Shown: positions 8,013 through 47,677, numbered from the stretch's first letter. The stretch: 64,000 nt of DNA from Candidatus Omnitrophota bacterium (GCA_023248155.1 JAHFFE010000001.1:314603-378602); one strand, 5' to 3'. Notes: generated by a model not told the origin, from the sequence alone. Numbers and translations: made by a program.

Positions 8013-8425
8013 GGGCGTTTATTGATACTTCATCGCTTTTCAAAAAATATGTAGAGGAAAGCGGATCGGAAGAGATGGATAAAATGCTGGATAAAATTTC
8101 CGAAATCACGGTTTCGCCGACTGCTTGGGTTGAATTTAATTCGGTGGCTTCCCGATCCCTGCGCGAAAAAAGAATGACATCGCAAAATTTTTCGCAGTTG
8201 TTATCAGAGGCGAAAAGGGATTTTCAATCTTATTCCAAGGTGATTTGGAGCGAGACGTTGGAAACCATCGCAGCCGAGTTGACTCATCGTTGTTCTCTTT
8301 CCACGCTGGATGCGATTCAACTTGCGTCAGGGCTTCTTTCGAAGTCGGATCTTTTTGTGACATCAGATCAAAGATTGTTTAGCGAGGCGCGAAAAACCAT
8401 TAAAGCAGTGCGTTTTATCGGATGA
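8009..8425 (+). CDS. vapC: VapC PIN-domain toxin
   Basis: FIDTSSLFKKY, TLDAIQLAS, FVTSDQRL. Confidence 0.9.
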   Translation: MRAFIDTSSLFKKYVEESGSEEMDKMLDKISEITVSPTAWVEFNSVASRSLREKRMTSQNFSQLLSEAKRDFQSYSKVIWSETLETIAAELTHRCSLSTLDAIQLASGLLSKSDLFVTSDQRLFSEARKTIKAVRFIG

Positions 8426-22637: not shown

Positions 22638-22724
22638 GTCATCCTGAGATAACAACGGCATGTCATCCTGAGAGTGTACTTGCTCAGGATCTAAAGATGC
22701 TGAACAGAAAATTTTCAGCATGAC
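22638..22724. repeat. REP-like GTCATCCTGAG element(s)
   Basis: Two gtcatcctgaga starts, a tgctcaggatc arm and an atgctgaa/ttcagcat hairpin. Related to 4368-4433. Confidence 0.75.
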
Positions 22725-22737
22725 AAAAAATAAATCT

Positions 22738-25700
22738 ATGAGAATAAAAAAATACAATCAAGTTTCCATCGCAACCTTTCTGCTAATCAGCCTGGTCGGG
22801 ACATCCTCCGTTCCGGCCGTCTCTCTTCCTATATATACGTTGCGCCCGCTTGCTTCCGCGCAAAATAAATCCGGTGCCGAAGAACTAACCAATGCCCTTA
22901 AGCGTCAAAATGATTCTAATGCCAATCAACCGCTTACCAACCAGGCCGTTTTAGACAAAGCGCAAGCTGGCCCATTGCTCAGCGAAACCAAAGAGTTGGC
23001 TGACGCCGCTGCGCGTGCCGCACTTGGCATTACTGCTGGCCAGGAGGAGAAGATTGAGCAATTTACTCGCGACAGAATTTTGTTGCGCTTGAACACCGGA
23101 AGGGAAATACCAACAGTTCCATACAAAACCGGGTTTTTGGCCGGTTTAGCCCAGGCCATTGCCGACCCAGGGCTTTCCGGTACCGCTGAGAGTTATTTAG
23201 TTCAGGAACTTCCACCAGGCCTTCGCGATGTGGTTCAGACAACGGCTGATCTAATTGGCAGAAATCGATTTACAAAGATGGACATGAAAGTGGCTCAAAC
23301 CGACACAGGGTCTCCGTTGACTGGTATTGCCGGCGAGACGATCATGGAAATTCTTTACAATGCGTTTTCACGGGGTTTTGGGGTAGGCCTCCCTCTGAGT
23401 GATAAAGGATATACGGCAATAGTCGTCAGCGGTACTCCCGGTTCTGATCTTTCGGTAGTATCCATTCCTGAGATTGGTCCCGATTTTCAAGACAGCCAGT
23501 TTGCCCGTTCATTAGCCAATCATGTTGTTGATCAACAGCCTACCGTTTTGGGAGTTGACCGGAGAGCAAAATACACTCTTTATGAAATAGGAACCGGCAA
23601 CACGGACTATGCGCTTCCAAAATATCTAGCGGGTGAGCAAGGTAGGAGAGGCTCATACCTTTTGCTTCAAATCGATCTGCCCATAAGTTTCGCCGGCGCG
23701 GAAGAGCGTGGGTGGTTTTCTCGCAATAAAGGTTTTTTTGGCATGGTTGCTTTGTCAGTGGCAGTCCTTGGATTTGCTGCTTACCAAATTGCCGGAGACC
23801 AGATTGCGGAACAATATTATCTTTATCGCCATCCTCCTACAGTAAAACAAGCGGCTGTTATGCCGTCCGGGTTGCATGTTCAGCTGCCTCCTGAAATGGC
23901 GGGTAAATATGCGGTGGCTTATCTGGAAACCGACCGTTTTTATCCGCAGGTCATAACACAGGTATCTGCTGACGGGACCGCTGCGTTTCATGTGGAAGTC
24001 CGGCCCCCTAACCGGCCCGGATGGATTGCCGCTCGCGGACGAGTGGTTGCGGTGGTTAATTCCAAGCAAGCGGCGAATGTAGCTTTCAGGGAAATAAAAG
24101 ACCCGTCTGCTTTGAATCGATTAAATCCGGCCGCTGTTTTAACAATTGATTCCGACGGGAAGGTGACTTCTGATAAGGATCCGTTGGGTAATCAAAACGC
24201 CGGGCAGGAAGAATCTGTTGCAACGGCCATTGATCAGCTTGTTTCGAACAGTTTTGGAGCAACCAATGTAATAACTACAGAAATGCTTTTCAATAATTCA
24301 AACGGAATGGTGACTTTCCAGAATTCAAGTTATTACGGGGATCAGACCTATGAATTAACGCTCCGTCCGTGGGTGAGTCTTTTAAGTGATCATCCAGAAG
24401 AGAACGTTGATTTCAGAGTTCGTGTCAGTCTGCAGAGAAAAGATTTCGCAGTTTTATCAGCTGCGGAACGAAAAGCCATGGCCAGCTACGAATTCAGAGT
24501 CAAAGGGTTTCCTTCTGCGGAGTTTCAATCCGGGTGGACAGCGCTTTCGCCTAATCCGCAACCCAAGAACTACTATGATCCTGGCGCGGGTCCTAACACC
24601 CCTCCAGGGTTTGTCATTCCTGCGGGTGCTGATATGGAAACGTGGATACCCATTCCGATAGTCTCGGACGCTTTCAGAGGAGAAAAGCTTGCCGAGTTGC
24701 AGCGACGCGACCCGGCTCAGAGAAGCATAACCATCCAGGTTAGGAAAGCCGGACAGGAAGAGACGGTTGTCGTTGGGCGGATACTTACTTTGCAGGCCGC
24801 GATGGAAAAACTGCGTACATTGTTAGCCGGTTCCAACCATAAACAAATCGTTTTTAATCCAGAGCAAAACGAAAGCTTAATAGAACGTACTGAAACCGCA
24901 TCAGTAAAAGATGTTTCGGATTTAACCGGGCCTGTTCGCCTCATTGGTCAATACTCGCCCAACTTTGATAATGGTCAGGGGGAAGGGCTGGTCGATATCC
25001 GTACCCGAAACGGCATCATTTATGTGAATCCTTTTCCATACAAAGCGGAAGAACTTTCTCTGAAAGTTACGCAGCTGTTTCGAAGAGGCGATATTTTGGT
25101 GGACCAAACTACGGGTGTCCGTCATTTTGAAGTTGCTGACAATCAAGGAAACGCTGTTGATGCTGTTCCTCTGGTTTCAATTATCAACGGATACACAGCT
25201 GATTCTAAGGTGACGCGTGTTCCTGCCGCGGATCTTCGGCTTCGCTACCGCGTGATTCGTGCCGTTGCCGCCGGGGCGGAAGAAAATGTTGAGGAATTGG
25301 CCGCTCGGTTAGGGGATGAGCCAATTAAGGTCGTGGAAACACTTCCTTCCTCTGCTCTTTTGACTGCCGATGCGAAAGCAGATGTGGTCCGTTACTTGCG
25401 GGGAGAGATTGAAGAGGCTGAGCTTCTTGGCATCTTGGACCGCTTAGGAATAGTGGAGATTCAGTCAGGCGGCAATTTCATGAACCAGGCGGAGCTCATT
25501 CGCGCCGCGGCGAAAGAGCGGGCCTTGGTGGAGAGAGCGATTGCGGAAGACCGTTTGGGAGAGTTTATTCCTATTGCCGATGGGAAATCCGCGGCTGTGG
25601 TGGAAGTGGATGTCGTCTCGAGTCTGCCAAAGGTTTATCTGCAGAATGGTTTGTCTTCGCCGGTTGCCGCGCCCGATGACATAGCGATCATTCCTTTAAG

Positions 25701-26025
25701 CGGCGATATTGCGGAAGTTTCTGATCAGTGGTTGAATGGGGCAGGTTCTGAGTCCGATCTGGTTATTTTGAATAACCAGCTGGATGGCGTGGCCGCTATG
25801 CCAGGTTCCTGGCTTCCGGCGGTAGCTCCAAGGCCAGCCGCGGTCCGCATGAGCCCGGTAACCTCGACGGAGCTTTTTTCAGGCGACGCCATTCAGGTGG
25901 GCCGCAACTTGCGCGCTATGGCGGCGCTCTCTCTGGCAGTGCACGGAGTACCGGATATGGATATAAACGGAATTACCTTTGTTGATCTGGCCGGAAAAAC
26001 CTATGCGGTTATTACCTCTGCCTAA
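22738..26025 (+). CDS. GxEE-family modular exported protein 1 (6 motifs)
   Basis: Signal peptide, YTLRP, motifs near 22873, 23038, 23695, 24202, 24751, 25273. C-terminal VYLQNGL..DLVILNN..WLP..TYAVITSA. Confidence 0.85.
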   Translation: MRIKKYNQVSIATFLLISLVGTSSVPAVSLPIYTLRPLASAQNKSGAEELTNALKRQNDSNANQPLTNQAVLDKAQAGPLLSETKELADAAARAALGITAGQEEKIEQFTRDRILLRLNTGREIPTVPYKTGFLAGLAQAIADPGLSGTAESYLVQELPPGLRDVVQTTADLIGRNRFTKMDMKVAQTDTGSPLTGIAGETIMEILYNAFSRGFGVGLPLSDKGYTAIVVSGTPGSDLSVVSIPEIGPDFQDSQFARSLANHVVDQQPTVLGVDRRAKYTLYEIGTGNTDYALPKYLAGEQGRRGSYLLLQIDLPISFAGAEERGWFSRNKGFFGMVALSVAVLGFAAYQIAGDQIAEQYYLYRHPPTVKQAAVMPSGLHVQLPPEMAGKYAVAYLETDRFYPQVITQVSADGTAAFHVEVRPPNRPGWIAARGRVVAVVNSKQAANVAFREIKDPSALNRLNPAAVLTIDSDGKVTSDKDPLGNQNAGQEESVATAIDQLVSNSFGATNVITTEMLFNNSNGMVTFQNSSYYGDQTYELTLRPWVSLLSDHPEENVDFRVRVSLQRKDFAVLSAAERKAMASYEFRVKGFPSAEFQSGWTALSPNPQPKNYYDPGAGPNTPPGFVIPAGADMETWIPIPIVSDAFRGEKLAELQRRDPAQRSITIQVRKAGQEETVVVGRILTLQAAMEKLRTLLAGSNHKQIVFNPEQNESLIERTETASVKDVSDLTGPVRLIGQYSPNFDNGQGEGLVDIRTRNGIIYVNPFPYKAEELSLKVTQLFRRGDILVDQTTGVRHFEVADNQGNAVDAVPLVSIINGYTADSKVTRVPAADLRLRYRVIRAVAAGAEENVEELAARLGDEPIKVVETLPSSALLTADAKADVVRYLRGEIEEAELLGILDRLGIVEIQSGGNFMNQAELIRAAAKERALVERAIAEDRLGEFIPIADGKSAAVVEVDVVSSLPKVYLQNGLSSPVAAPDDIAIIPLSGDIAEVSDQWLNGAGSESDLVILNNQLDGVAAMPGSWLPAVAPRPAAVRMSPVTSTELFSGDAIQVGRNLRAMAALSLAVHGVPDMDINGITFVDLAGKTYAVITSA

Positions 26026-26033
26026 AATCAATC

Positions 26034-26096
26034 GTTAGTAGTAGAAAACTTCGCCGTTATTTTTATTGACAAAAATAACAACCCCAGCGCTATAAT
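26034..26096 (+). promoter_or_regulatory. Sigma70-like promoter with conserved upstream box
   Basis: gttagtagtagaaa (26034), TTGACA (26066), TATAAT (26091). The 19-bp spacer is long. Confidence 0.65.
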
Positions 26097-26215
26097 GGCA
26101 AATAACCTTGAATTTCGCAGCGGTCTTTTTTTGTCCGTCATTTTTTACAGATTTAGATAAGATCTGAGACAGCTTTTATGAACCCATATAAAAACTCGGC
26201 CAGATAAAGGAAAAA

Positions 26216-29200
26216 GTGATGCGGACAAATTTAAACCAGTTCCTGGCCGCCCTGCTTCTCGTTGGTCTCTCTTTCGCGAATATTTCTCCCGTCCCTCAGC
26301 TGTTCATGGTGAGTTTATCGAACCATACTCTGCGTGCCGTTGGTTTAGAGGAAGGCACCCAAAAGAATTCTTTATCTGACGCTTTAAAAAATAATGCCTC
26401 CGGATTAGAGGAAGCGGTTGTTTTGGACGCGTCGGTTCCTTATCAATATCCCTGGCGGACTGCCGAATTCGACGAGCTTTGGCCAAATGCCGATGATCGT
26501 GATCCCAAGCTGGAACGCTTTCAAAGATTGTTCAACCAGGATTTGGACGGCCATCCGGAAGGGGAGATTCAGCTCACATCGCCCAACGGAAACCCCGATG
26601 AGTTGGCCCGCTGGATTGCTGAAAACAATATGACTCCGCAGCGGGTTGCCGAAAGCATTGAATGGATCCATAAGATGCACCCCTACGATAAGGAACGGTT
26701 TATCTCTCTTCAGCAGTTGCCCAGCATTCAGGCGTTTCTTGCCGCTCATCCGGAAGCCCGTTTCAATTTAATCGGCGTCCGCGAAGATGAGAGCAAGGTC
26801 GGTTCCTTCAAAATCGGCCAGTATATGGATGAATATCTGCAGAAGATCCTCAAAGCCGGCCATCGAGGAGATGTAAATTTCCCGGGCGCCGTGATGTACT
26901 CCTCGGGAAACGCCATTCAGGGAGATGTCGAGACATTGGCCTGGCTCAAAGAGCAGGGGTTGGTTCCGCAAGATTTCAAGATCACAATGGTGGCAATGGC
27001 TTACCTGAAACCCAAAAAGCGGAAAATGATCGAGGATTTTAAAAAGCGGGGATTGGTTGACCGAATTGTTACCCCCGAAGAAATTGCCGCCGAGTATCTT
27101 GCCGATTCAGAGGGGGGCAGCGTACCGGTTCAGCATCAGGACTTGGCGGTTGATCCCGTGGCGTTGGATGACATCAATCAGGTTTTGAAACTTTTGGATT
27201 GGTGGTCGGAGAAACAGGGCCGGGCCCATATTTACGCTTCCAACAGCTTAAGCGCCGTCGTGGGCGGGGCCAGAATCTACTACGATATTAATCGGGCATT
27301 TACGCAGGATCGTGAATACCTGCAAGCGTTGTTGGGGGATGCCGCCGAAACTTTGCCGGCTCAGCCCGATGGTATTGTCATGCCTGCCGCGGGCGGCGGA
27401 CCGTTCGGGGGAATACCGTTTTGGGCGCGCCAGCTTGGGCATGCCACCAAAACCATCGGACCGATCCCCACCATCCGGACCGGCAGCATCGCGGAAGGTC
27501 TGGGCATTCAGATGATTCAGGAACTCGCGCGCAATCTGGCCCGTTTATTGGGAGTAAATCAGATGCAGCTTACCGAGGTATCTGAGCGGGCTATTCTAAA
27601 AGCGTTTGTGGAACTGCATGACGCCGGAATTGAAGTGGAGCCCAGCTCTGCCATCGCCTACGCGCAGGTGCTGTACCTGATGGAAAACAAACCTGAATTT
27701 TTCTCTCAATTTTTGGCTGAGAACGGCCGGCCGATGACGCTGGTGGCCATATTAACCGGGCGCAATTTTGAACCATCGGATGCCGCCTGGGCTTGGGCGA
27801 AGGTTCAAGAGCTTCGCCTGAAGGAGCCCCATGCCCTCAGAGCCGATCCAACCCAAAGGCAGGCGGCCGTTCCTCCGGCGAATGGGCTGCAGCAGGTTGT
27901 CGTTTTGAGTTCAGGCACCGAGCAGGCAATGGGCAGAGCGCTGCGCCAGGCGGTAATCGATTGGCGCGCGTCCCAGCCGGCAAATCTGAAACCAACCGTA
28001 ACGGCTGTCTACAATCCTCCCAAAGATCTGGATTGGCTTAAAAAGATAAAACCGGATGTCATTCTTGTGGCGGCTACTGCCGAAGAAGCCCAGCAGGATG
28101 GTTTACTAAGGAATGCCATCACAGTTCTTGGCGATGCCGGCGTTCTCATTCGTTATGTTCCTTTCCCCAGCAAGGTAGCAAGATCTTTGAATCCGCTGGC
28201 AAAATCTCTGCCAGGGAAGCTTCTAAAAATCGGCGAGCTGTTTCAGGGAGGGGATATTTTGGTGGATTCGACAACCTCCAAGCCCCGTTTTCGGGTAGTT
28301 GCCGACCAAGCAAACACCATCAGCGCTGTTTCTCTCCAACCAATTGATGAGCAGGGCAATTCCGCGGGGCCGGAAACCGCTGTCCCCGTCGCGGATCTAC
28401 GCCTGCGTTTTCAAGTGGTTCGCGCCGGCTTAGAGGAGCAATTGCTCACCGTTACGGTTCCTCCAAGCCAGCCGGTTTGGCTCACGGCGGCAGATGGAAT
28501 CCAATTGCTGGAACGGTTGCTGCAAGAAGGGGAGTCCCGCTCGATTTACTCTGTTAAGCACGGGGCTGATTTTCTTGTGCCTCGTTACAGAGCGGTAGTT
28601 TCAAAAGAGGGAGGTGTCATTAAAGTCCGAACAGTCGGTAAATTTTCGATGTCACTTGAGTTCGTCATGACGCGCGTCGAGGGTTATTTTATCGTGAAGC
28701 CGGATGGAAACATCTTCGTTATTGATGCCGAAGATGGAAACCAGAGAGCGAATATTTATTTGCGCAAGAATTTTTCGACTATTTCCGTTGATTCTCTCGC
28801 GCCTGCCGCTGTCGAGGGCTGGGTTCAGCGACCTTCCGCGGAAGAAGCGGCGGCCTATATCCGGGAGCTTGTTCCACAAGGCGTTTCTGCTGTTCAAATG
28901 GGAGACGCTGAACATTCTCCGGAATCTGACCGTTTGGTTGATGATCTCACTCAGTTTCAGGGGGGAGCTGGCAGCGGCCGGATTTTCTATTTGAGAAGGT
29001 CCAACCAAAATGTAGAGGTGTTGGCGATCACTGCGATGGATTTTGACGCCAGATCCATTGGGGAGTTCCATCAATTGCCGATGGGTGAGTTGTTGAAGAA
29101 GATCGCTCAGCTGGGAGCGAACTGGTTCGTCCAGGTCGGTTTTTCGAATTCGGCAGCGCGGGTATATGCGACAGACACCTCTGGTTTGCAGAGACTTTTG

Positions 29201-31267
29201 CGTGGATATCCCAATACGACGGGTTTCTACGCCCTGTCCCTTCGCGCAAATCAGACTGCTTTCGTGAGCAACAGCTCGAATCCCAATTCTTCCGGATTGG
29301 AGGAAGATTTTCGAGATGCTTTCTCGGATGGGATGGCCGCTCAGCATTATTTGGACCAATTGGCGGGTTTTGCCGATATTGTTTTATTGAATCAAACCCA
29401 AGAGGCTTTGGGTAGAGTCGACGCCCATTCAAGGGATTATCTGGATCCGAAGGGAATTTATCCTTCCACCAGAGAAATTATTCCCAAGTACGCTCAAGCC
29501 AATCCTGTCGAATTAGACAGTGCTCATCGCGAACGGTTGAAAGAATTTCTTTTTTCGGTTTGGGAGAACGAGCGCCGTATGCGGAACGAACCGCAAGGTT
29601 CTGCTCGAACAGGCAGGCCAGTGGTTGATGTGGAGTCAGCCATGCTTCCTGAACTCATAGAGCAGGGACGTGCTGCTCAGCGGCTGGCGTTGTCTGGCGG
29701 GCTGGAAGAGCGGGTGAATCTTTTGGTTATTCGGGATTCTAATGACGCGGCAACCAAACAAGCGCTGCTAGGTATCGTTCCTGGCTGGGCTAAAACAAAA
29801 GCTTCGCAGGAAATCGATGTGGTTTCTTACGGCACCCTGGATAAGGGGCTTGCCGCCTCGCCTAAGAAAGGCCGATGGAGCGGGATCCTGATGTTGCGGC
29901 ATGTTGCGACTGAAGCCGATGTCGATGAGATTGAGCGCCAGATTACCGGCCTTAAGCCCGTTTCGGATTCTGCGGCGATACCGGTTGCGCTGATCGTCTA
30001 CGCGTCGGACCAAAAAGTATACGAAAAACGGTTGCTGGGTTCGCTGCAACTCCTCAAAGGAAGCCAGGGTATCGTCACATTTTTTGTTCATCGTTTATGG
30101 CAAGACAAACCTGCTTCTCAGCCCGCCGTCGCGGATTCACCGGAACCCACAGCGAAACCGGCAGTGCCGCCGGCAGGAGTCTTCACGGGAGTTCTGGATC
30201 AATTGCTGGACTCCGCGGCTAAGTACGCTGTGGCTGTCGGTCTGGAAGAGCGGGGAGCGCTGCTTCCCGATGTTTTCTTTCGGCGTCCAGGGTTCCAGTT
30301 CCTTATGGAAATGGGAAGAGCAAAAATCCTGCCGGCGGATTTCGATGTCCGGGATAAATCTCTTCAGGTTCGAATCGGCCGGATCGTAGGCCGCTGGGGG
30401 TTCAGCCGTTGGCTGGAAGAACTCCCGCTGGCAAAGGTTCTTGAGAATAGCCCCAATGGGCACAATGACCTGGCCGCGGTGGAAGCGTTTATTGCAAGGG
30501 CACAAAATATTCCGCCGGATTATTTTGGGATAGCGGCAGGAACCACCCAGTGGTCGCCCAAGAAGACGCCTTCTTGGCCGGCGGTTCAGCCATTAGTGAT
30601 CGAGGCGGTAGCGGGTGCTCGTCAAAATAAAAATTTCGAATTACAGTACACCCCTGCTGCGGTAAGCGAATCGGATGTGACTGATCAAAGCGACGGTAAA
30701 ACCTACCATCATGTTGAAATAGTTTCGCCTCCGAAAATTCAGCTTCTTCCTGCCGCCGGGCTGGAGGAATGGACCGTTTCCGATCTGTTCTTGCGCGAAG
30801 TGGTTACCACGCACAATTTTTACACGCGATTTGCGCAAGAAGACGGTTCCCAGCTGATTGTGGTGCCGATGGGACAGAATAAAGTTAAGCCGGCGAATCT
30901 TTATTTGCAGGAGGGGCTTGAGAATCCCATTTCGCGCCTGGTTCCAAACCCTGTTCGTCTGGGAAGAGAAAAGGAGGACGTTCGGGGGCTCTTCCGCCAA
31001 AACCCCGCGGGTCCCAACGATGTCATTGTTCTCAACTCCGATATAGTGAGGGGTGATCCGTTGTCCTGGTTTTCAGCGGGCGGCGCGAATACTCAATATA
31101 AGGTGCGTATTTCACCGGCGTTAGCCATGAAATTCAACAATGATCTGGATACCCGATTCATGGAAGTGGTCGCGTTGGCCGCGCGGGTGGGTAATGGAAT
31201 GTTATTGCTGGACTACACGTATCAGGCGGTGGATGACCAGGTGTACTTGATCCTGCGCTCCGCGTAA
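26216..31267 (+). CDS. GxEE-family modular exported protein 2 (7 GLEE motifs) with a PLP threonine-dehydratase-like module
   Basis: Signal peptide, HTLRAVGLEE. GSFK, SSGN, MPAAGGG, SIAEGL, VEPSSA, ILTGRN. Ends VYLILRSA. Confidence 0.88.
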   Translation: MMRTNLNQFLAALLLVGLSFANISPVPQLFMVSLSNHTLRAVGLEEGTQKNSLSDALKNNASGLEEAVVLDASVPYQYPWRTAEFDELWPNADDRDPKLERFQRLFNQDLDGHPEGEIQLTSPNGNPDELARWIAENNMTPQRVAESIEWIHKMHPYDKERFISLQQLPSIQAFLAAHPEARFNLIGVREDESKVGSFKIGQYMDEYLQKILKAGHRGDVNFPGAVMYSSGNAIQGDVETLAWLKEQGLVPQDFKITMVAMAYLKPKKRKMIEDFKKRGLVDRIVTPEEIAAEYLADSEGGSVPVQHQDLAVDPVALDDINQVLKLLDWWSEKQGRAHIYASNSLSAVVGGARIYYDINRAFTQDREYLQALLGDAAETLPAQPDGIVMPAAGGGPFGGIPFWARQLGHATKTIGPIPTIRTGSIAEGLGIQMIQELARNLARLLGVNQMQLTEVSERAILKAFVELHDAGIEVEPSSAIAYAQVLYLMENKPEFFSQFLAENGRPMTLVAILTGRNFEPSDAAWAWAKVQELRLKEPHALRADPTQRQAAVPPANGLQQVVVLSSGTEQAMGRALRQAVIDWRASQPANLKPTVTAVYNPPKDLDWLKKIKPDVILVAATAEEAQQDGLLRNAITVLGDAGVLIRYVPFPSKVARSLNPLAKSLPGKLLKIGELFQGGDILVDSTTSKPRFRVVADQANTISAVSLQPIDEQGNSAGPETAVPVADLRLRFQVVRAGLEEQLLTVTVPPSQPVWLTAADGIQLLERLLQEGESRSIYSVKHGADFLVPRYRAVVSKEGGVIKVRTVGKFSMSLEFVMTRVEGYFIVKPDGNIFVIDAEDGNQRANIYLRKNFSTISVDSLAPAAVEGWVQRPSAEEAAAYIRELVPQGVSAVQMGDAEHSPESDRLVDDLTQFQGGAGSGRIFYLRRSNQNVEVLAITAMDFDARSIGEFHQLPMGELLKKIAQLGANWFVQVGFSNSAARVYATDTSGLQRLLRGYPNTTGFYALSLRANQTAFVSNSSNPNSSGLEEDFRDAFSDGMAAQHYLDQLAGFADIVLLNQTQEALGRVDAHSRDYLDPKGIYPSTREIIPKYAQANPVELDSAHRERLKEFLFSVWENERRMRNEPQGSARTGRPVVDVESAMLPELIEQGRAAQRLALSGGLEERVNLLVIRDSNDAATKQALLGIVPGWAKTKASQEIDVVSYGTLDKGLAASPKKGRWSGILMLRHVATEADVDEIERQITGLKPVSDSAAIPVALIVYASDQKVYEKRLLGSLQLLKGSQGIVTFFVHRLWQDKPASQPAVADSPEPTAKPAVPPAGVFTGVLDQLLDSAAKYAVAVGLEERGALLPDVFFRRPGFQFLMEMGRAKILPADFDVRDKSLQVRIGRIVGRWGFSRWLEELPLAKVLENSPNGHNDLAAVEAFIARAQNIPPDYFGIAAGTTQWSPKKTPSWPAVQPLVIEAVAGARQNKNFELQYTPAAVSESDVTDQSDGKTYHHVEIVSPPKIQLLPAAGLEEWTVSDLFLREVVTTHNFYTRFAQEDGSQLIVVPMGQNKVKPANLYLQEGLENPISRLVPNPVRLGREKEDVRGLFRQNPAGPNDVIVLNSDIVRGDPLSWFSAGGANTQYKVRISPALAMKFNNDLDTRFMEVVALAARVGNGMLLLDYTYQAVDDQVYLILRSA

Positions 31268-31282
31268 AGGCCCATTGAAAAT

Positions 31283-31343
31283 GTTAGTCGTAGAAAGTTT
31301 CATGATTTAAATGTTGACATTTTTGCACTTTCTCAGGTATAAT
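31283..31343 (+). promoter_or_regulatory. Sigma70 promoter with conserved upstream box
   Basis: gttagtcgtagaaa (31283), TTGACA (31314), 18 bp, TATAAT (31338). Confidence 0.75.
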
Positions 31344-31353
31344 TTTCACAATA

Positions 31354-31389
31354 CGCTGGTTTTGTCTTCCAAGCCAGCGGCTCTTTTTT
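31354..31389 (+). terminator. Terminator-like hairpin in the 5' leader
   Basis: cgctggtt...agccagcg stem followed by gctcttttt, between promoter and start codon. Confidence 0.45.
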
Positions 31390-31453
31390 ACCCTGCATTT
31401 TTACTTATTTTGGATAACTTAAACAAAGCAAACATTCGGGAGGAATACAAGTA

Positions 31454-37225: not shown

Positions 37226-37241
37226 CAGAACGGAGAGAAAA

Positions 37242-40200: not shown

Positions 40201-42056
40201 TTTCTGAGGCTGGAATTTCTTTTCAGAGCAATCCCAATAATTCGTTGAGTGTTACCCTGTCGTCGAATAATTATTTAGTTGTTTCCCGTCTCCAGCCGGC
40301 CGCCGGCGCTGAGGAGAAACTGATACTTTCCCGTTCCGAACTGCTGGATCGTGTGGAGGCTTTAGCTCAGATACAACATACGGGAGGCGGGTATGCCATC
40401 GGCCGGGTGGGGTATCTTCGTGCTGGAGAGGTAGTGCCGATCGAGGTATCCCGGGCAGGCATAGACCAAGGGGAAATTCCGGGAATTATTCCTGCAATGA
40501 CGAATCGATTAATTGCTCGGATCGAATCGCTGCGAGATGGCCGACACGCTTTGCAAATTCAGAGTTCATCAAATGGCGGCCAATTTGCAGTAACTCCGCA
40601 CGGGCTTCAGGTTCAGAAATTTTGGGAGTTACAGCAGATTCACGCCGGATACCCGTTGGAATATTTATCAGATCCTTCCATATTACAGGGTAACAACAAG
40701 GTTGCCGTCACGCGCAATGGCCGCCCGGTTAATTTTGCCGATTATGAGCGGCTTCAGGATCAATTGGTGGGGGCGCCGGGACAAGCATTGCCAATGACCC
40801 TGCTGATCACCGCCCAAGGGGTTGAATTGGTTCCCGCTTATCTTGTTTCGAGTGGCCAGCCGGCAAAGGTTCAAGGTCTTTTTGAACTTGAGGTGGCCCC
40901 GGAATTTACAGCGCCTCCTTCAGGACAATTTCCCCTTATTAATGAAACCGTTTTTGTAGAGCGTTTAGCAGAGGTTCCGAATAATCCTTTTGATTTGGCG
41001 CTTGGGTTCGCTCCGGAAGCCCCCGTTCGTTTATTCCGCCTGCTGGATTCGCCGTTCTCTGTGGCAACGGATGGCAATCGTGTTGTTTATTTCTCCCCGG
41101 ATGCCGAGCCATTGGCGAGGGCCGTGGCGAAGGCGGGAAATATCTCGACAGTTCTCTCCGCGTCGAAAGATCTTAAATTGCGAATCAGAATTGAAACGCC
41201 TGATCAAACCCAATCGGGTGATAAGTTACTGGTATCGGTTCAAGAAGCTCGTGCCGGTGCGGAGGAAAACTGGAATAATCTGGCGCCGAATGAAAAACAT
41301 CCGGTTTTTGTCGGCCAGGCCGTGCAATGGATTTCCGCGGCGGGTGAGTCAGGGAAAGTGGCCGGCATCCGCGTGGGCAATGACCCAAGCCAGGAAGCCG
41401 TTCTGTTGGCGAATCAATTTTCTAACCCGATTGCGCTGGAGCGTCAGTTTAATTCGGTCGCGATGCAGGGGAGCGTTGGCTTGTTGTGGCGCCCTGCGGC
41501 GGGAACCGCTGTCGGCTCTGGAATGATCGCGCTGGAAATTTCTTCTCCGGAAGCCGGCGCCGAGGAAGGCGTCACGCGCCTTTCTGCGGAGGAATTGGTT
41601 GGCCGGGCAATGCTTTCGGATGAAGAGGGTGTCGTCCAGTTCTCTTCCGGAGACTTGGTTATTCCGATCAGCACTAATTTGCCGACTACCGGAACGCTGT
41701 ATCATCAGCCGGGGCTGGCACTGCCGAATATCGACGGATTGAATCAGGTTGTTATTGCCGGCAGCGCGGTCGATGTTCAGAAAATCTGGGATCAAACGCC
41801 TCCGATACCGGGTGATTTGGTCATGCTCAACAACGATACCGTTGGCGACGGGTACAAAGACTTTCTGCCGACTGTGTTGGTAGAGGGCGCTCTCTTTTTG
41901 CGTGTTAGTGCCGCAGCGTCGGCCAAGCTGACACCGGAACTGCTGGCCGGTATCCTTGCGGTTTCTCAGCAGCTAGTAGGGCAGGTACTGTTGATTAATG
42001 ATCTGGAATATGTCACCGTAGAAAATCAGACCTACGCGGTTCTGCGCTCGGCCTAA
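37242..42056 (+). CDS. GxEE-family modular exported protein 4 (9 motifs, modules unassigned)
   Basis: PAWA-LRATGAEE. Motifs near 37341, 37443, 38052, 38460, 39066, 39864, 40305, 41256, 41556. Ends TYAVLRSA. Confidence 0.88.
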   Translation: MRFNYLRTISAIVLTAFSLSAATPMPAWALRATGAEESATQPILARALQSGNKGNFVRGVDSRLVAAGQEENVHVLGIEGKPTNSREGLTAYDNQPDLQTAVRAYVQASSVLVTITSIQQRDGTTDEFLGKPFVFETYRFAPGKDPLDPKDGNWGGMTWQLRRFSIRLNGLSRVGSPLPNMSHTLNRFRLIETSPGQLVIEPVFDAALAPRLKTLLPDVALETIQGWLSKGQYAQILSLAESGANERTDTRNLTQIRNMLNAMLDVSSAAGAEERFEVSVRSTSDGTENFDRIELMSRSEETDRLANALGLIKGRSLLLIRQKAPTTATEAFPFFAVSDGAKVILLSGAGSDGAQLWRSYAEEKIKRSIVFSSMRSFRTLESPVNVQISSPLSIPQYDLLQVTISAGQEEKWSNPFMGPNRVNLMSGDYAAKWISQGVLAAKIASVAVHPKEGSPVTLSLNQVNTARKLLRQFKRDDWVNVSWAENGSARGEIRVDVRPVDVLSDGMPVPPVGEFTSVIGYLTITTTPYTAARAIAASAAEIASVETLISFTSDPGYWSGYGHASTDWNAVAEQHAKVYVAAGLASINPAILSAKVQFLANLEPLFLAGQEETYFYSPAGATLKSNDQTQPDLPIAVGDVFRIYLAQKRVKPDDRSDETYLLRLMENGQLALMERPPAGRTFSEMTENEDQFVQLAIGWDQAHQRGERVTINTLYGPVSISLNAGKTQLAFEHAFREENIEERIGSKVNIYPSSLYDLGFNRLIPAVGLPAVRDFKAAYRRFYKNQQNGDAAARLEAARVALVVLANTEDQTRFRAAYASFEKALLNELQTAPYTLVKGVPGFDKPIFAIDYVSHTQRQLVDELTAIRSLSNAAGAEETYRNYDSSGWHVTLPAGQAVAQPVTVATNPGDILLLQWAPQIPNQENRLFALVRVSDDGKEISVLDQLDSQFRLSSFYRAGVQGMTGAEVPGDVIRSVEWGPAASEARISEAGISFQSNPNNSLSVTLSSNNYLVVSRLQPAAGAEEKLILSRSELLDRVEALAQIQHTGGGYAIGRVGYLRAGEVVPIEVSRAGIDQGEIPGIIPAMTNRLIARIESLRDGRHALQIQSSSNGGQFAVTPHGLQVQKFWELQQIHAGYPLEYLSDPSILQGNNKVAVTRNGRPVNFADYERLQDQLVGAPGQALPMTLLITAQGVELVPAYLVSSGQPAKVQGLFELEVAPEFTAPPSGQFPLINETVFVERLAEVPNNPFDLALGFAPEAPVRLFRLLDSPFSVATDGNRVVYFSPDAEPLARAVAKAGNISTVLSASKDLKLRIRIETPDQTQSGDKLLVSVQEARAGAEENWNNLAPNEKHPVFVGQAVQWISAAGESGKVAGIRVGNDPSQEAVLLANQFSNPIALERQFNSVAMQGSVGLLWRPAAGTAVGSGMIALEISSPEAGAEEGVTRLSAEELVGRAMLSDEEGVVQFSSGDLVIPISTNLPTTGTLYHQPGLALPNIDGLNQVVIAGSAVDVQKIWDQTPPIPGDLVMLNNDTVGDGYKDFLPTVLVEGALFLRVSAAASAKLTPELLAGILAVSQQLVGQVLLINDLEYVTVENQTYAVLRSA

Positions 42057-42060
42057 AACT

Positions 42061-45000
42061 ATGAAAAAAACAGACTGGTTTAAAATAAGCGGTTTTCTGG
42101 GGCTGGCGCTGCTGCTGGCTGTTCCCGCGCCCGTATACGCTCTGCGCGGGGCGGGTGCCGAAGAAAGCTTGGAAAAAACGGATTTAACGCGGGCACTCTC
42201 CCGAGCGGGCAACCGCGGTTACTTGAAGCGTGCCGCCGGATTGGAGGAAACACCCTGGACAATCATCGGCCGGGGAGAGGGCACGCCGGTGGCGATGGCG
42301 CTGGATGATTCCGGTGACGCGCTGGTTCTGTCCCGGATCGCGGCCGGCGAACTGCGGCTTCAAAGAATAAGCCCGGCTGGAAAAGCAGAACCCATAACGC
42401 CGGTTCCGTCTTTGGCGGTTCCAATGCCGCCGGGTTCCGGCGGAGATCCGGCCAATCCGTCCGCTGCTTCTGTTTTCGCCATTCTTCCGTTCCGCGATCA
42501 GGTTCTTGTTACCGATGGCGGCCAGCAATTTTATCCGATAGAGATTTCATCCTTAGGGCAAACGGTTCCCGACCTCCAATCGGCGGCTAAGCCGGTTCCG
42601 CTGGCTAACGTAAGCCGGATCGATCAAATGATTGTCCGGCCTTCCGACGGAATGCTGATTATCGTGGATAAGCAGGGAGACGATGCCGCTTCAAAATCCA
42701 ATTCCATTGTTCGGTTATTTGATGTAAAGCAAATGCCGCCTGTTGTTAGAGAAGCCGTTGGGGTGGGAGAACCCGTCGTGACTGCACCGGCAGTAGCCAG
42801 AAACCGTCTTTACCTGGCCCAATCATTCCCGTTGAGCCCCGCTGCGGCAGTGCCGGCGGGTACCGGGACGCAGACTCAGCGAGAAATTCGCATCCGCGGG
42901 TTTAACATCTCTAACGGCGGGGATGGGAGCGTCGAAACGCTGAGAATTCAGGGACCCAAAACCTTCGTTCGGTCGGATGTGGCCGGTTTGGCGGCTGGCT
43001 TAGTGGATGGAAAACCATTTTTGTTTTCGCTGGAGAGCCGCCAACGCAAGGGTCCAGGAGTTGAAGCCGCCCAGCCGCTTCGTCTGGCGGTTTATTCTCT
43101 CGAGAATCAGGCGCAGGTTGGTTTCTTTGATCTGCCGGCCAATGTTCGGCAGATTACTTACGATTCAAAGAACAGCCAGGTACTGTTGGCCGCGGGCGGC
43201 GCGCCCGAATCCAATTCTTATCAAATCACCGCGGCGCCCGTCGCACAACTCATCCCGGCCGTTCAGCAACGGCCTGTTTCTGGATCTGGTTTAGAGGAAG
43301 CCCCTCAGCCTCCACCCGCCCAGCGCACGCAAGGGATTCATTCTCGGCTTGCCCGGATCTTCATCGAAGGAGTGCTTGCCCGTTATACGCCTTCAGGCAA
43401 TGAGAATTCTGATTTCACCGTCAAATATTTCGGAGAAACAGAAGATGAATCCTTGCTGTTTAATCCGGAGCTTTTCCTTGGGGTTGTAAGAAAATCCCAG
43501 GTTTCGCACCATGTTTGGGTCAATGTAAATCCAGCCACAAAAATCATCGAGGTTCATCCCGTTCAAATCCGCGAAGAATTGAAAAAACCGGTGATTCTTC
43601 TGGATTCTCAAAATACAGTGAACTTTATTCTCAACGCGGCTCTTCCAGAGCCGGTTCTTGGGGTCGCCTATCGGGAAGCAGGGCATCTTCAGGTTTTATC
43701 GGGGGCCTTGTTGGGCAACGCGAGTTTGCTCCCCCGGATTCTTCAGATGGTTAACATCAGTCAAACTATTCTCTTTTTGAAGGAACCCTTTGAAATTCCT
43801 GCGAATTCAGACGCAGAACAGTCTGCCCAAAAAGGATTCTTGCTGCGGCTGGCTTATGTGCCATCTCAAAGGTCTTTGCGTGCGGTCGCGTGGAGAACCA
43901 TTGATCAGTTTGTGCAGGAGTTTTCCGGTTTTGCAAAGGCAGGCCAGGCATCGGTTCTTTATTATCATACGCCTGCCGGGGTTTATCTTCTGGAAGGACC
44001 GGAGAATCTGCAGAATGCCGACTTTCTTCGTGCCGCGGCCGAACAGGTGGCCAGCGGTTCCTACGTGCTTGCCTCAAAGGAGGGCGCTGACGGAAAAGAA
44101 TTTCATTTGTACGCGCCTGAGTTTGCAGGTTTGGAGGAAACGGCCGTAGCAGAAAACGCATTGCCCTCAATATCCAGCCGTCCGGTTATTTCCTCGCCAT
44201 CCGGATTCTCGACGACAGTAGCTGGGCCTGTTTTTCCCGCTTATTCGGCGGTGATCTCCGCGGCAGGCAATGGTCCTTCCGCGTCAGCGAATTCCGTTTC
44301 TTCTTTGGCGGTTTCCGTGAGCAGTCCTCTGAATGCTCCGGCGGTTATTGAGCCGGTTACCGGCGAGCGGGCACCGGAACCGGTGGTTTTCTCGACGGTG
44401 GAAGAGGTGATTGCTTATTTGAACGCTTTGCCGGATGATCAGCCGGTTATTGTGGGCGGTGTCGAGATTCCTTCGCTAAGAGACACTCTTTTTCCGGTGA
44501 AATTAGACGAACTGGCCCGCAACAATCCGGGCCAGAATTTCTTAATCCGGCCCGCCGGCCCCGGCGCCGTTTTGCGCGTTGACCTGCAGGCGCCGGTCCG
44601 CACGCTCAGCGCGACGGAATTGTTTGGTGATACTACCGCAGTTTCGGTCCGATTTGACCTGGCCGAAGCTTCCGATGCCATGATTGCCGCGCAAATCGCC
44701 CAGGCCAATAAGCTGGGCCAGCCGGTACAGATTTCCCGTTCCGGCGAGTTTGCGGCTGTCTTTGAAAAAACTCCAACACTTTCGCCATCGGTCCTTTACA
44801 TACAAGATGATTTGGATCTGCCGCAAGATATGTCGGAATCCGATGGAACGGTTGATGTTCGCCGGATTCCGGCCGATCCCGAGCTGGCCCAGGAATTCTG
44901 GGAGCTGCAGCAGACCCTCTTACCCGGCTCCGTCGTGATTTTAAACAGCAACCTGCTGGCCAATCAGCGGCTCGATCCGCGCCAGTGGCTGCCCGCGAAT

Positions 45001-45177
45001 CTCGATCCGCAGATTCCGGTTTTAATCATGGGAGAAATGGCCGCGCAAAACTGGAATAAAGATTCGCTCGCTTACCTGGTGACGCTGGCTGCTCATTCCC
45101 GCGGAATTTTGTTTATCCGCCAGATTACTTATCCGACGGTAAACGAACGGGAGTTTGTCGCTATCCGGTTCGTCTAA
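42061..45177 (+). CDS. GxEE-family modular exported protein 5 (4 motifs) with a probable beta-propeller module
   Basis: PVYA-LRGAGAEE. Beta-rich blade-like segments at 42250-43290. C-terminal LYIQDDL..VVILNS..WLP..FVAIRFV. Confidence 0.85.
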   Translation: MKKTDWFKISGFLGLALLLAVPAPVYALRGAGAEESLEKTDLTRALSRAGNRGYLKRAAGLEETPWTIIGRGEGTPVAMALDDSGDALVLSRIAAGELRLQRISPAGKAEPITPVPSLAVPMPPGSGGDPANPSAASVFAILPFRDQVLVTDGGQQFYPIEISSLGQTVPDLQSAAKPVPLANVSRIDQMIVRPSDGMLIIVDKQGDDAASKSNSIVRLFDVKQMPPVVREAVGVGEPVVTAPAVARNRLYLAQSFPLSPAAAVPAGTGTQTQREIRIRGFNISNGGDGSVETLRIQGPKTFVRSDVAGLAAGLVDGKPFLFSLESRQRKGPGVEAAQPLRLAVYSLENQAQVGFFDLPANVRQITYDSKNSQVLLAAGGAPESNSYQITAAPVAQLIPAVQQRPVSGSGLEEAPQPPPAQRTQGIHSRLARIFIEGVLARYTPSGNENSDFTVKYFGETEDESLLFNPELFLGVVRKSQVSHHVWVNVNPATKIIEVHPVQIREELKKPVILLDSQNTVNFILNAALPEPVLGVAYREAGHLQVLSGALLGNASLLPRILQMVNISQTILFLKEPFEIPANSDAEQSAQKGFLLRLAYVPSQRSLRAVAWRTIDQFVQEFSGFAKAGQASVLYYHTPAGVYLLEGPENLQNADFLRAAAEQVASGSYVLASKEGADGKEFHLYAPEFAGLEETAVAENALPSISSRPVISSPSGFSTTVAGPVFPAYSAVISAAGNGPSASANSVSSLAVSVSSPLNAPAVIEPVTGERAPEPVVFSTVEEVIAYLNALPDDQPVIVGGVEIPSLRDTLFPVKLDELARNNPGQNFLIRPAGPGAVLRVDLQAPVRTLSATELFGDTTAVSVRFDLAEASDAMIAAQIAQANKLGQPVQISRSGEFAAVFEKTPTLSPSVLYIQDDLDLPQDMSESDGTVDVRRIPADPELAQEFWELQQTLLPGSVVILNSNLLANQRLDPRQWLPANLDPQIPVLIMGEMAAQNWNKDSLAYLVTLAAHSRGILFIRQITYPTVNEREFVAIRFV

Positions 45178-45274
45178 TCATCCTCGCAGTGGTTAATCAA
45201 AATATAGTCTTTGATATTCTGTATTGATTTTTAATAAGCTCATTGGGTATAGTTCGTATATAGACACAAAAACA

Positions 45275-47677
45275 ATGAAAATCCAGGTTCGTAAGATAAT
45301 TCTTTCAGTGATGGCGATGGCGCTTTTAGTCTCTCAGGCGTCACCGGCCATGGCGTTGCGTGCCGCGCAGCCTGCCAATGCAAATGAGAAAGCCGCGCTG
45401 GGTACTGCGTTAACCGAAGGGGCCGGCGCCGAAGAAAAAATGAACGCTGTGGTTTGGATCGGCCCGGACGGTATTAGCACCGGTTTGTTCAGCCGTAGAG
45501 ACGGCATTTTTGGCGATGATAGAAATCAGCCGGCATCGATGGGTTTGGAAGAGATCCCGGTACTGATTCCGGGGGTCGGTTTAACCCCCGCACAGCGGTT
45601 TTGGCAGGCCGCTCGGTCGCAGGTGATAAACGCGGTTGATTATTTTGGGTTGAGACCAAGTCAGGTCGATCGGGTGATTATCGCGCGGCCCGAAGCGCTG
45701 CCCGCCGGGTTTGAGGAAATGGGAGATCTGCAGTTGGGAATGGAGTTGGAATTGAGATTTTATTTCGGACGCCCGATTTCGGTTCAGATTATGGGCCAGC
45801 CGCCCACAGTTTCAGCGTCGGCCCCTGTCATACAGCGGTTCGCCGCGGTTGTGGCGTTGGCCGGCCAGGAAGAAAAACCCGCCTACCGGATTCCAAAAGA
45901 CAGACAGGGCAGCGGCCCGGTGGCCATTGTGGCGAAAGTGGGCGGCACAAAATTTCATGCGACGTTGGCCGATGCCAAAGGGTTATGGGAAGAAACCGAT
46001 GTTGTTGCCGCGGCTGTTCCTTTTGACGGAGCTAATCAAGACCAGATTTTTAATCATTGGGCAGACCAAATTGTTCAGACAGCCCGCCGCGCGAATGTTT
46101 CTGCAGACCGAGTTATTCAAATCCATATATCGTGGCCCGGTTATTTTGATGAAGAAGGAAATTTGACCCAGCCTCAGGAAAATATTCGCGGTATTCCGGC
46201 CGGTGTAAATATGGCGAAGCAACTTCAGGCACGCGTCAACCAACTTTTGTCGAGGCATCCCAGTCTCGGTGAAATTCAGGTGATCGGCGTGCACGACGGC
46301 ACCGGCCATGCCCTGGGTGAGCTCAGTCCGTTCGGGGCTTTCCCCGGTGAGAAATCATTGCATTTGGTTGGTCCGGGCACCGGTATTGCCAATCGCACTA
46401 TGGTTCGCAGGAACCCGTTCTTGGGTGGTCCTGAAGTTGATCTTGTAGCGAATGAAGCTCCGAATATGTTGGCCTGGGATATTGACAGGAAAGATTATCA
46501 ATTGGTGATTTTTGATACACGCGGGTATCCTCTGTCGCGGGCAACTTTAGCAAATGGCGATCCGAATCCCTATTATGGGCGGCAGAGTATGGAAGACCGG
46601 ACGGCCGGTCCCGGCATCGCTCGATATGTGGTGGAGTTGTTGCGCGCCAATTTGACTGCGCCTGCCGCAATCGATTTTTTGGATGCTCTGTCAATTGAAT
46701 TGGCGGATAAAATTCGAACGAATACGGAATTAAAGAGAAACGATCTCGATCAGGTCATGCACACTACTGGAATTTTAGCGACAAGAGTGAACCCGAATCT
46801 CATAGCACTGACGGCTGTGGCCGAGCGAGCCTATGAGCTGGGTGTTGGAACGGCGGTAACGATCGTGGAATATCATCGCCACTATGGAGAAGATCAGTAC
46901 CCTTATCCGAAGCATATTGTGCTTGCCGGCGGCGTCAGTACAATTGGTGAATTGTACGCGACCAATTTTAAGGCCGGTTTGCGGGCAAGAATTGAGCGGT
47001 ACCGGACGGAAGCGAATGCTCCTGCTGATATGCCGGATCCGCAAGAATTTGTTAACCGTGTTGGAACCTCCACGATTCTGGATGGCGACCGGGAACTGCT
47101 GGCCGGGTTGCTGACGGCAGACCAGATTGCCGCACATCAGAAGTTGCTGGAGAGCGTTACTCCTGTTGCTTCCTTAAATTGGTTGAGTCAGTTGACCGAG
47201 CACTGGAATGCCGGCACTCCGTCCCAGGCACAGTCCGATCGGCGCGGATTGATTTTGGATGCTTCAAAAAATCCGAAGGTGGCGCGCATTGCGCAAGCGA
47301 TGGCAATTTTAATGCGGCAGGAAAACAATCCATTTGGAGTGGAATTTCGATTAGTGATTTTCGAGGATCAGCGTCAGCCTCTGTTGGATGAGTTGCGACA
47401 GATTAATTCCGAAGCCGCGTCCATTTTGGAAAGCCGGATTATTTCTTATGCCGAAACCAATGATTATGATGAAGCTCGTCTTTTGGCACGGCAGCAATTA
47501 GCCACCCTTTTTGGGTACTCTAATCCCGACGAGATGCCGAATACTGTTTATGGTGTCATCACCGATGTAACGCCACGGATGGCGCAGGAATTAAACGCTT
47601 TCTTCGTGGCCGGCGGTTTGCAATTCCTCACTTCCGACGCAATCACTCGCCTCGAAGCTCTCTTCACCTCCGCATAA
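45275..47677 (+). CDS. GxEE-family modular exported protein 6 with a ROK-family sugar-kinase-like module
   Basis: SPAMA-LR, GAEE/GLEE/GQEE plus a GFEE variant. VGGTK, ISWPG, HDGTGHALGE, GTGIA, VLAGGVS. Ends LFTSA. Confidence 0.85.
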   Translation: MKIQVRKIILSVMAMALLVSQASPAMALRAAQPANANEKAALGTALTEGAGAEEKMNAVVWIGPDGISTGLFSRRDGIFGDDRNQPASMGLEEIPVLIPGVGLTPAQRFWQAARSQVINAVDYFGLRPSQVDRVIIARPEALPAGFEEMGDLQLGMELELRFYFGRPISVQIMGQPPTVSASAPVIQRFAAVVALAGQEEKPAYRIPKDRQGSGPVAIVAKVGGTKFHATLADAKGLWEETDVVAAAVPFDGANQDQIFNHWADQIVQTARRANVSADRVIQIHISWPGYFDEEGNLTQPQENIRGIPAGVNMAKQLQARVNQLLSRHPSLGEIQVIGVHDGTGHALGELSPFGAFPGEKSLHLVGPGTGIANRTMVRRNPFLGGPEVDLVANEAPNMLAWDIDRKDYQLVIFDTRGYPLSRATLANGDPNPYYGRQSMEDRTAGPGIARYVVELLRANLTAPAAIDFLDALSIELADKIRTNTELKRNDLDQVMHTTGILATRVNPNLIALTAVAERAYELGVGTAVTIVEYHRHYGEDQYPYPKHIVLAGGVSTIGELYATNFKAGLRARIERYRTEANAPADMPDPQEFVNRVGTSTILDGDRELLAGLLTADQIAAHQKLLESVTPVASLNWLSQLTEHWNAGTPSQAQSDRRGLILDASKNPKVARIAQAMAILMRQENNPFGVEFRLVIFEDQRQPLLDELRQINSEAASILESRIISYAETNDYDEARLLARQQLATLFGYSNPDEMPNTVYGVITDVTPRMAQELNAFFVAGGLQFLTSDAITRLEALFTSA

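Follow-up and report, generated by a model that had tools for sequence, protein, structure and literature searches.

What is the function of a short peptide that recurs again and again within proteins of otherwise disparate content? The question is raised by a stretch of 64,000 nucleotides from a Candidatus (Ca.) Omnitrophota bacterium (GCA_023248155.1, JAHFFE010000001.1:314603-378602), here called the window, in which six consecutive open reading frames (ORFs) on the plus strand (positions 22720-47677) encode proteins of 1101, 1683, 1923, 1604, 1038 and 817 amino acids with multiple copies of the motif (A/S)G[L/A/Q]EE, or GxEE. An earlier note on this DNA had proposed that the motif is a processing or recognition site and that the proteins are exported precursors of separable modules, which is indeed how they look by sequence. 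Our analysis indicates that the GxEE system is real and large, and it is not described in those parts of the literature that were covered. A modular design and the exchange of modules as cassettes are shown by sequence comparison, and recognition of the motif at the protein level, at the borders of these modules, is strongly implied. The cleavage half of the proposal and the destination of the modules are what we infer from these observations.

The six window proteins (8166 amino acids) contain 36 copies of G[LAQ]EE, as compared to 0.59 expected from composition and a maximum of four in 1000 shuffles, and not a single cysteine. Together with one copy in the ORF at the start of the window, this gives the 37 copies that had been claimed. 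In the whole genome, with 1552 mechanically called ORFs, G[LAQ]EE was seen 203 times versus 41 expected, and 181 times versus 15 when preceded by a small residue. The family of genes picked by the motif has 41 members and accounts for 76,328 of the 619,993 ORF residues (about 12%), while the remaining 1511 ORFs contain it about as often as expected by chance (36 seen, 34.4 expected). Cysteine makes up 0.04% of the family proteins, as compared to 1.0% in the rest of the genome. The proteins are about 490-9700 amino acids long, mostly lack membrane segments, and are encoded by genes that are dispersed over the chromosome with housekeeping genes as neighbors. The largest, of 9740 amino acids, is open at the contig end: its unclosed frame opens contig C25, and the end of the frame consists of motif-bounded modules. 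Another contig of the same genome is spanned entirely by an ORF of at least 45,037 residues (C9:2-135112) with only three G[LAQ]EE. The suggestion that no such motif is present in the housekeeping proteins of the window did not hold, since GAEE is found at residue 225 of a SerA-like ORF (16485).

The start of the array, previously placed at 22738, corresponds to the second methionine of the gene at 22720; the description of large consecutive genes on the same strand was otherwise borne out. All six proteins have a hydrophobic N-terminal segment, judged from the sequence to be a signal peptide, followed by LR and a leader holding one or two motifs, and the copy numbers of 6, 7, 7, 9, 4 and 3 were recovered. 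Polyprotein 1 (22720-26025) contains motifs at 22870, 23035, 23692, 24199, 24748 and 25270 (first bases, as for all motifs below), and has no Pfam match, neither as a whole nor module by module. Polyprotein 2 (26216-31267) has motifs at 26339, 26399, 28424, 29291, 29696, 30236 and 30755. Its module at 26402-28426 contains a pyridoxal phosphate (PLP)-dependent enzyme domain (PALP, PF00291, E 1e-8), which BLAST also recovers in the paralogue at C15:1465 and in the genome G011, where it belongs to a different polyprotein. The motifs in polyprotein 3 (31454-37225) are located at 31544, 31643, 32153, 32516, 33323, 33695 and 34196. Here, the match to a KDPG/KHG aldolase (PF01081, E 8e-24) in the module at 32519-33325 begins nine residues past the motif glycine, and a transaldolase-like domain (PF00923, E 1e-7) at 34997-35824 is placed within the final segment of 1008 amino acids. 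Polyprotein 4 (37242-42056) has nine motifs (37338, 37440, 38049, 38457, 39063, 39861, 40302, 41253, 41553) and polyprotein 5 (42061-45177) has four (42151, 42235, 43285, 44125). Polyprotein 6 (45224-47677) contains motifs at 45422, 45539 and 45860, and the sequence AGFEE at 45704 adds a fourth variant to the three that account for all counted copies. The seventh member at the window start (1-3105), also on the plus strand as are all six polyproteins, belongs to the family, with a tail and one motif at 2650, but what had been described is only the 3' part of a gene for 2436 amino acids (C20:310397-317707). Its GT5 glycogen-synthase-like module lies inside the window and its GH77 module upstream of it.

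The single conserved C-terminal domain that had been claimed is present in polyproteins 1-5, but could not be assigned in polyprotein 6 or the seventh member. In the five proteins it is a domain of about 165 amino acids that we refer to as beta-type (for example at 30770-31264 on the plus strand, in polyprotein 2; the others at 25528, 36728, 41559 and 44680), while polyprotein 6 ends in another type, common to proteins of the genomes G002 and G014. Among 140 complete C-termini, at least three families can be distinguished: 20 proteins have the beta-type domain, and 35 and 25 have one of two helical types (two proteins are in both), leaving 62 in none. The beta-type tail matches no Pfam family and has only sub-threshold matches in the Atlas. 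Because no residue is invariant among 19 aligned members, the domain is not obviously catalytic, and it was rejected as a protease. The final residue is alanine in 91 of the 140 proteins and mostly valine or leucine in the rest, and a C-terminal signal in the family proteins is possible. The leaders of polyproteins 3, 4 and 5 (31535-31669, 37329-37466 and 42142-42261) have in common a GN(R/K)G(N/Y) insert between two motifs, also present in the genome G003, which suggests a local duplication of the leader.

The distribution of the motif follows taxonomy. A search for the DNA pattern encoding (A/S)G(L/Q)EE in 22 genomes of the order gave 7-133 matches per genome, with 0-11 for the reversed control, while 44 genomes of the same class outside the order gave 0-8 matches, as compared to 0-7 for the control. 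The enrichment expected in the family and in related genomes was thus found. The margin over the control is small in G006, G170 and G007, where relatives or the genome's own genes use methionine, valine or a relaxed last residue. The variable position is genome-specific: glutamine or leucine in G011, leucine in G002, methionine in G018, and valine in G009 and G010. In G007 (L045), the motif is relaxed to (A/S)GLE followed by a small or acidic residue. Whole-protein searches identified no full-length relative of the window proteins, and a search for the GT5 family in 150 genomes gave only stand-alone enzymes among the matches listed. A record titled as a Planctomycetia metagenome-assembled genome (L011:6359-12709), possibly a mislabelled bin, also encodes a polyprotein with GxEE motifs, and its GH77 and GT5 modules are the same. 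Giant proteins with a C39 domain (20 loci in other families) show neither GxEE enrichment nor a comparable junction motif, and were set aside as a separate class.

To learn how the motifs relate to the architecture of the proteins, we compared all against all 162 proteins: 41 are from this genome, and the other 121 were taken from one named record and from regions sampled in 14 further genomes. Among 421 internal alignment ends, 112 were located no more than 10 residues from a motif in both partners, as compared to 0.29% for random positions. The homology between family members starts and stops at the motif, which indicates that the modules are exchanged as cassettes. Modules of polyprotein 4 match separately, from motif to motif, in unrelated polyproteins of other genomes: its residues 269-410 have their match in G010, and its residues 1020-1343 and 85-274 in G009. 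Likewise, the seventh member contains a segment of 144 residues between two motifs, and three of its four homologs have a single motif and lack the segment. Recognizable domains sit within the motif-bounded segments, consistent with the earlier observation that they begin or end close to motifs. They include PALP, KDPG aldolase, transaldolase, GT5, GH77, ROK, SIS, GHMP kinase, HATPase, GNAT, PP2C, FHA, WD40 and cupin, although most of the 148 segments scanned with Pfam had no match. Whether the motifs lie in flexible linkers was judged from alignment ends and Pfam borders. These comparisons show that a module enters a gene, disappears from it or is exchanged with another gene as one unit, with (A/S/T)-G-(L/Q/A/M/V)-E-E at its borders.

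Some features of the modules are suggestive of processing. We searched for internal twin-arginine-type signals with a pattern of our own, based on the consensus and a hydrophobicity filter, and found that 10 of 15 start 5-20 residues past a motif, as compared to 1.1 expected within 25 residues (binomial p 1e-8). Twin-arginine signals function only near an N-terminus and in a cytoplasm, and their position just after the motifs suggests that the modules become free chains. A second indication is provided by the paralogue at C23:9627-18782, where residues about 110-310 form a peptidase-like domain that is followed by Gly-Cys-Cys-Gly at the opening of a GlmS-like region. Pfam identifies only SIS here, and C39 and GlmS were assigned from motifs; the peptidase-like domain and the Gly-Cys of the GlmS-like module are kept in G000 (the genome of the window), G001 and G017. 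Enzymes of the GlmS type require a free N-terminal cysteine, which implies that chains of this kind are processed somewhere, and a second processing signal may be present inside this family member. We consider it probable, on these grounds, that cleavage of the chain takes place at the GxEE motif or in its immediate vicinity.

A dedicated protease is not evident in the array itself, as had been stated, but a candidate is located elsewhere in the genome. The gene at C23:7819-9597 (L026:2820-4598) is a single-copy, stand-alone gene for a protein with a signal peptide and a predicted TIKI fold, and sits 30 bases upstream of three GxEE family genes. Profiling across the order identified it in 19 of the 22 genomes, including all eight of the best assemblies, at 62-75% identity, always stand-alone and usually once. 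Of the 17 loci with room for a neighboring gene, a strict pattern places it immediately before a family gene in nine, and in another three an N-terminus of the same kind was recognized by eye. The named homologs of this putative partner gene, at 65-73% identity, are from Ca. Omnitrophota or Omnitrophica, as are the Atlas clusters. A second, divergent and apparently broken copy with an internal stop was observed in G017 (C109; L174, L175).

The relatives of the gene outside the order connect it to other junction motifs. A search with the GT5 module against 1.84 billion representatives gave long, cysteine-poor proteins that are jointed by RSE(L/M)R (P0019, P0036, P0037), GARLA (P0026, P0027), DxAML (P0025) or DGG (P0111), and de novo counts recover such motifs (SELR 11 versus 0.2 expected; GARL 10 versus 0.37). 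Four long proteins with other motifs begin with a domain homologous to the stand-alone protein, and in P0019, P0026 and P0036 the first RSExR or GARLA motif is placed directly behind this head. Like the GxEE proteins, the polyproteins with other motifs end mostly in alanine. In the phylum as a whole, 112 of 150 genomes contain the domain, in most cases as numerous copies within ORFs that are thousands of residues long. With one head per long protein in most lineages and one free copy in the lineage whose polyproteins lack the head, the pattern resembles that of a processing enzyme that has moved from acting in cis to acting in trans.

The residues of the predicted active site are highly conserved. 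Among 107 sequences of the TIKI-fold family, Asp112 is present in 105, His114 in 104, Glu142 in 107, Arg481 in 106 and His509 in 106. Their order and spacing correspond to those of the catalytic residues in the TIKI protease RRSP, an endopeptidase (E3900, H3902, E3930, R4001 and H4030; from the sections of PMC6254334 covered), a match made by motif order and spacing rather than superposition. Two further residues near the catalytic motifs, Arg146 and Arg479, are kept in close homologs and mostly replaced in distant ones. For the Atlas model of the homolog P0209, all seven neighbors outside Omnitrophota are TraB, ChaN or DUF5694 clusters. A scan of 60 genomes gave five ChaN matches, four of them to the TIKI-fold family. 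The protein resembles the TIKI hydrolases (RRSP, Tiki, TraB/GumN, ChaN, Ere) in its predicted fold neighbors and its set of acid-x-His, Glu, Arg and His, and differs from them in that Asp takes the place of the first Glu, about 300 residues of helical sequence are inserted, and no Pfam match exceeds the cut-off. A sequence search against solved structures gave no match to it, and profile matches of calmodulin type to the helical insert were dismissed as composition artefacts. If the chain is cut, the TIKI-fold protein is, judging from these features, the likely cutter; taken overall, its identification as the cutting enzyme is plausible but falls somewhat short of probable. For the combined proposal, that the polyproteins are exported and cut at the motif with the TIKI-fold protein as the leading candidate, we consider the chances to be even.

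Several alternatives have to be weighed against this proposal, one being that the peptide is a by-product of a signal in the DNA or RNA, such as an in-frame site for cassette recombination, a hairpin or a captured ribosome-binding site. Synonymous positions at codons -3 to +4 around the motif are indeed biased in every genome with enough sites (in G000, z is 6.9, 5.3 and 7.4 at codons -3 to -1; in G011, chi-square exceeds 100 at two codons), a single 15-base spelling accounts for 31 of 192 sites in G011 and another for 28 of 125 in G002, and the purine run at the junctions resembles a Shine-Dalgarno sequence. Internal junctions are also nearer to the DNA consensus than the copies in leaders and tails in three of four genomes (p 3e-7, 2e-5, 1e-3 and 0.12). 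However, the constraint is on the residues. In 133 proteins picked by the motif there are 649 sites versus 8.7 expected, and single changes at Gly, Glu and Glu are at background, the largest excess being Asp for the last Glu (15 versus 6.1), so that only synonymous positions vary at these codons. At orthologous junctions, all of the 17-18 pairs compared agree at Gly and at the two Glu, while the codon identity of 0.39-0.76 shows no excess over the background of 0.68 (about 18 pairs). A hairpin or palindrome was rejected because of the lack of base-pair covariation (best z 2.6 over many pairs), with only a slight gain in RNA folding (mean z -0.38), and an internal translation start was rejected because there is no excess of ATG or GTG at +4 to +11. 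The contigs of four sequencing runs from one study, apparently of the same strain, revealed no joint at the motif, which is uninformative either way. As the sole explanation, a DNA or RNA signal is thus largely refuted, and we consider it very improbable. Instead, selection appears to act on the peptide, which is very probably read by a protein partner, and the DNA pattern may be explained if the DNA of a new junction is copied from an old one upon insertion of a module and then drifts.

Recognition by a protein does not have to mean cleavage, and the motif could be a docking or threading tag that is bound, uncut, by a chaperone or an export machine, with the protein working whole as a set of tethered domains and the TIKI-fold protein possibly serving as a receptor. 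The strict conservation of residues fits binding as well as cutting. Furthermore, leaders and one C-terminal domain contain extra copies of the motif, as many as four in a stretch of about 130 residues, and a cut there would yield only short peptides. There are also segments with several domains and more than 1000 residues from one motif to the next. The extra GLEE in the helical C-terminal domain is placed at strand-helix turns where homologs lack the motif, and for 7 of the 32 motifs that fall inside alignments the partner has no equivalent. The last two observations weigh against cutting, as does the finding that the one cut that is forced by established chemistry, at the Gly-Cys site of the GlmS-like module, is without GxEE and uses another signal. 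The twin-arginine signals could alternatively be relics of whole-gene capture, and hydrophobic segments in general show no such excess behind the motif (4 of 24, p 0.46). Yet a docking tag leaves unexplained both why twin-arginine signals are placed just past motifs and why the partner has a full catalytic set, and we regard it as unlikely, though deserving of serious attention. If the chain is cut, the enzyme may still be another one, a protease of the host or of the cell itself, or the cut may be made in the cell's own cytoplasm or periplasm to serve the cell itself, with the TIKI-fold protein doing something else, such as working as an esterase or on a host target. Against the TIKI-fold protein as the cutter stands that TIKI folds include esterases and inactive members (in the portions of the literature covered), that the Atlas TM-scores for P0209 are 0.40-0.60 by target, and that the Pfam ChaN matches are all below the cut-off (8 of 62 homologs, E 4e-4 to 0.04). 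Another enzyme would agree with the failure to find the gene in three motif-bearing drafts that are 80-87% complete, namely both genomes of the sister family (G019 and G020, 80 and 87%) and G014 (80%), and with the many fused heads that lead proteins without a detectable junction motif, as a repeated motif is present in only about 6 of 20 such loci of other families. Finally, TatA and TatC of the twin-arginine translocation (Tat) system are encoded in this genome, as in 18 of the 22 genomes of the order, so that twin-arginine signals are no proof of delivery to a host. Against another enzyme speaks that the single stand-alone copy of the TIKI-fold gene occurs exactly in the lineage whose polyproteins lack the head, that it adjoins family genes, and that motifs are placed directly behind fused heads elsewhere. 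We consider this alternative decidedly less likely than a docking tag.

Under the proposal of cleavage by the TIKI-fold protein, the cysteine-free chain would be exported by the Sec pathway via its Sec-type signal peptide, which would be removed ahead of the LR leader, and each junction peptide would be recognized by the protein partner. A cut at or near the junction would then release free enzymes and expose internal signal peptides. The TIKI-fold protein would act in trans on the products of all 41 genes, while in other Omnitrophota it would be part of the chain, in cis, at the head of long proteins. A secretin-containing machine may subsequently pass the modules, mostly enzymes and regulators of cytoplasmic type, to a host or prey cell, where their site of action would be the cytoplasm. 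The requirement of the cargo for ATP, PLP, NAD or sugar phosphates argues for a cytoplasm as the destination, Omnitrophota are small cells with host-dependent traits (as far as PMC10066038 was covered), and the genome encodes four secretins and seven T2SSE-type ATPases over the cut-off. A hint only is that G011, which is 93% complete, has no TatC match, yet contains Tat-type modules. We regard this destination as possible, with the balance tilting slightly against it. New junctions probably arise by recombination that copies existing junction DNA, in which case a newly captured module would arrive with its own site. A more general scheme, in which each lineage has its own junction code (GxEE here, RSExR, GARLA and others elsewhere), the junction DNA seeds recombination that places new gene cassettes in frame, and the peptide is cut by a co-evolving TIKI-fold protease, part of the chain in most lineages and a single gene acting in trans here, so that enzymes, regulators and Tat-addressed proteins are released to work in the host, is tentative and in our view rather unlikely in its entirety.

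A few other features of the window were noted. The last segment of polyprotein 6 (45863-47674) contains motifs that by eye resemble those of a sugar kinase of ROK type, without a Pfam match, and the gene following the array (48107-49273) encodes a ROK family protein. Just upstream of the array is an acidic ORF of 187 amino acids without a Pfam match (21896-22459), and a gene for a PIN-domain protein (8009-8425) is located among the Kdo and lipopolysaccharide genes of the window.

The earlier note knew of no named family for these proteins, but the array proteins belong, as short representatives, to the long multi-enzyme proteins that have been described for Omnitrophota. West-Roberts et al. 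(2023; 10.1101/2023.11.21.568195) proposed that the giant proteins are cleaved by C39 or S8 domains and stated, in the sections covered, that the cleavage points are unknown and that their absence blocked the analysis. The same domain content was catalogued by Nielsen and Lui (2026; 10.64898/2026.06.07.730766), and the terms motif, cleav, linker, polyprotein and proteoly do not occur in their main text. Neither the junction motif nor the TIKI head appears in the covered text of these two studies, and a search of the accessible literature, supplements aside, turned up no paper in which Omnitrophota are connected with a junction motif or a TIKI domain. The present analysis adds the border statistic, the enrichment of Tat signals, the pattern in the junction DNA and, for the GxEE lineage, a stand-alone and putatively trans-acting copy of the TIKI-fold gene. 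The motif supplies predicted cut sites as well as module borders that are ready for use in annotation and folding, and the order offers the simplest test case in the phylum, with one conserved stand-alone candidate protease and a substrate of five residues. If the proposal is true, a tiny groundwater bacterium applies polyprotein processing in the style of viruses to about 12% of its coding capacity and renews the cargo by a cassette mechanism, and a protease would be at hand that is sequence-specific and has a fold on which little work has been done.

As in the long Omnitrophota proteins described in the sections covered of these studies and of Seymour et al. (2023; PMC10066038), the GxEE proteins combine a signal peptide with disparate domains of cytoplasmic type (GT5, GH77, ROK, HATPase, GNAT, PP2C and WD40 are common to both) in bodies that are unique in sequence. 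They are below the giant size of at least 10,000 amino acids in the cited papers, at 817-1923 amino acids in the window and 9740 for the largest. The MARTX toxins (PMC6315884, in the part covered) also contain exchangeable effector modules in one polypeptide with conserved ends and a variable middle, and their modules are freed by cuts. However, the GxEE proteins have no RTX repeats or cysteine protease domain according to Pfam and no cysteine in the six window proteins, and they differ from MARTX in having a signal peptide instead of type I export, a candidate protease of another fold that would act in trans, a fixed five-residue tag and 41 paralogues. MARTX is therefore an analogue rather than a homolog. 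Polyvalent proteins (Iyer et al. 2017; PMC5512222, in the part covered) similarly contain disparate enzymatic domains in one chain, and are proposed to be injected into the host and released by proteases. The GxEE genes differ in being chromosomal and cellular, in encoding signal peptides (a term absent from the covered text of that paper), and in that their cargo is metabolic rather than directed at DNA. Among the Pfam matches of the 148 segments there were no MPTase hub, ArdC/ArdC-N or MuF domains, and only one segment had a weak match to an M48 peptidase. A further parallel is found in CdiA and Rhs proteins, where a short peptide, VENN or DPxG, marks both the border of an exchangeable module and the place of processing. 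While these proteins carry one C-terminal toxin each, the GxEE chains contain up to about ten internal modules.

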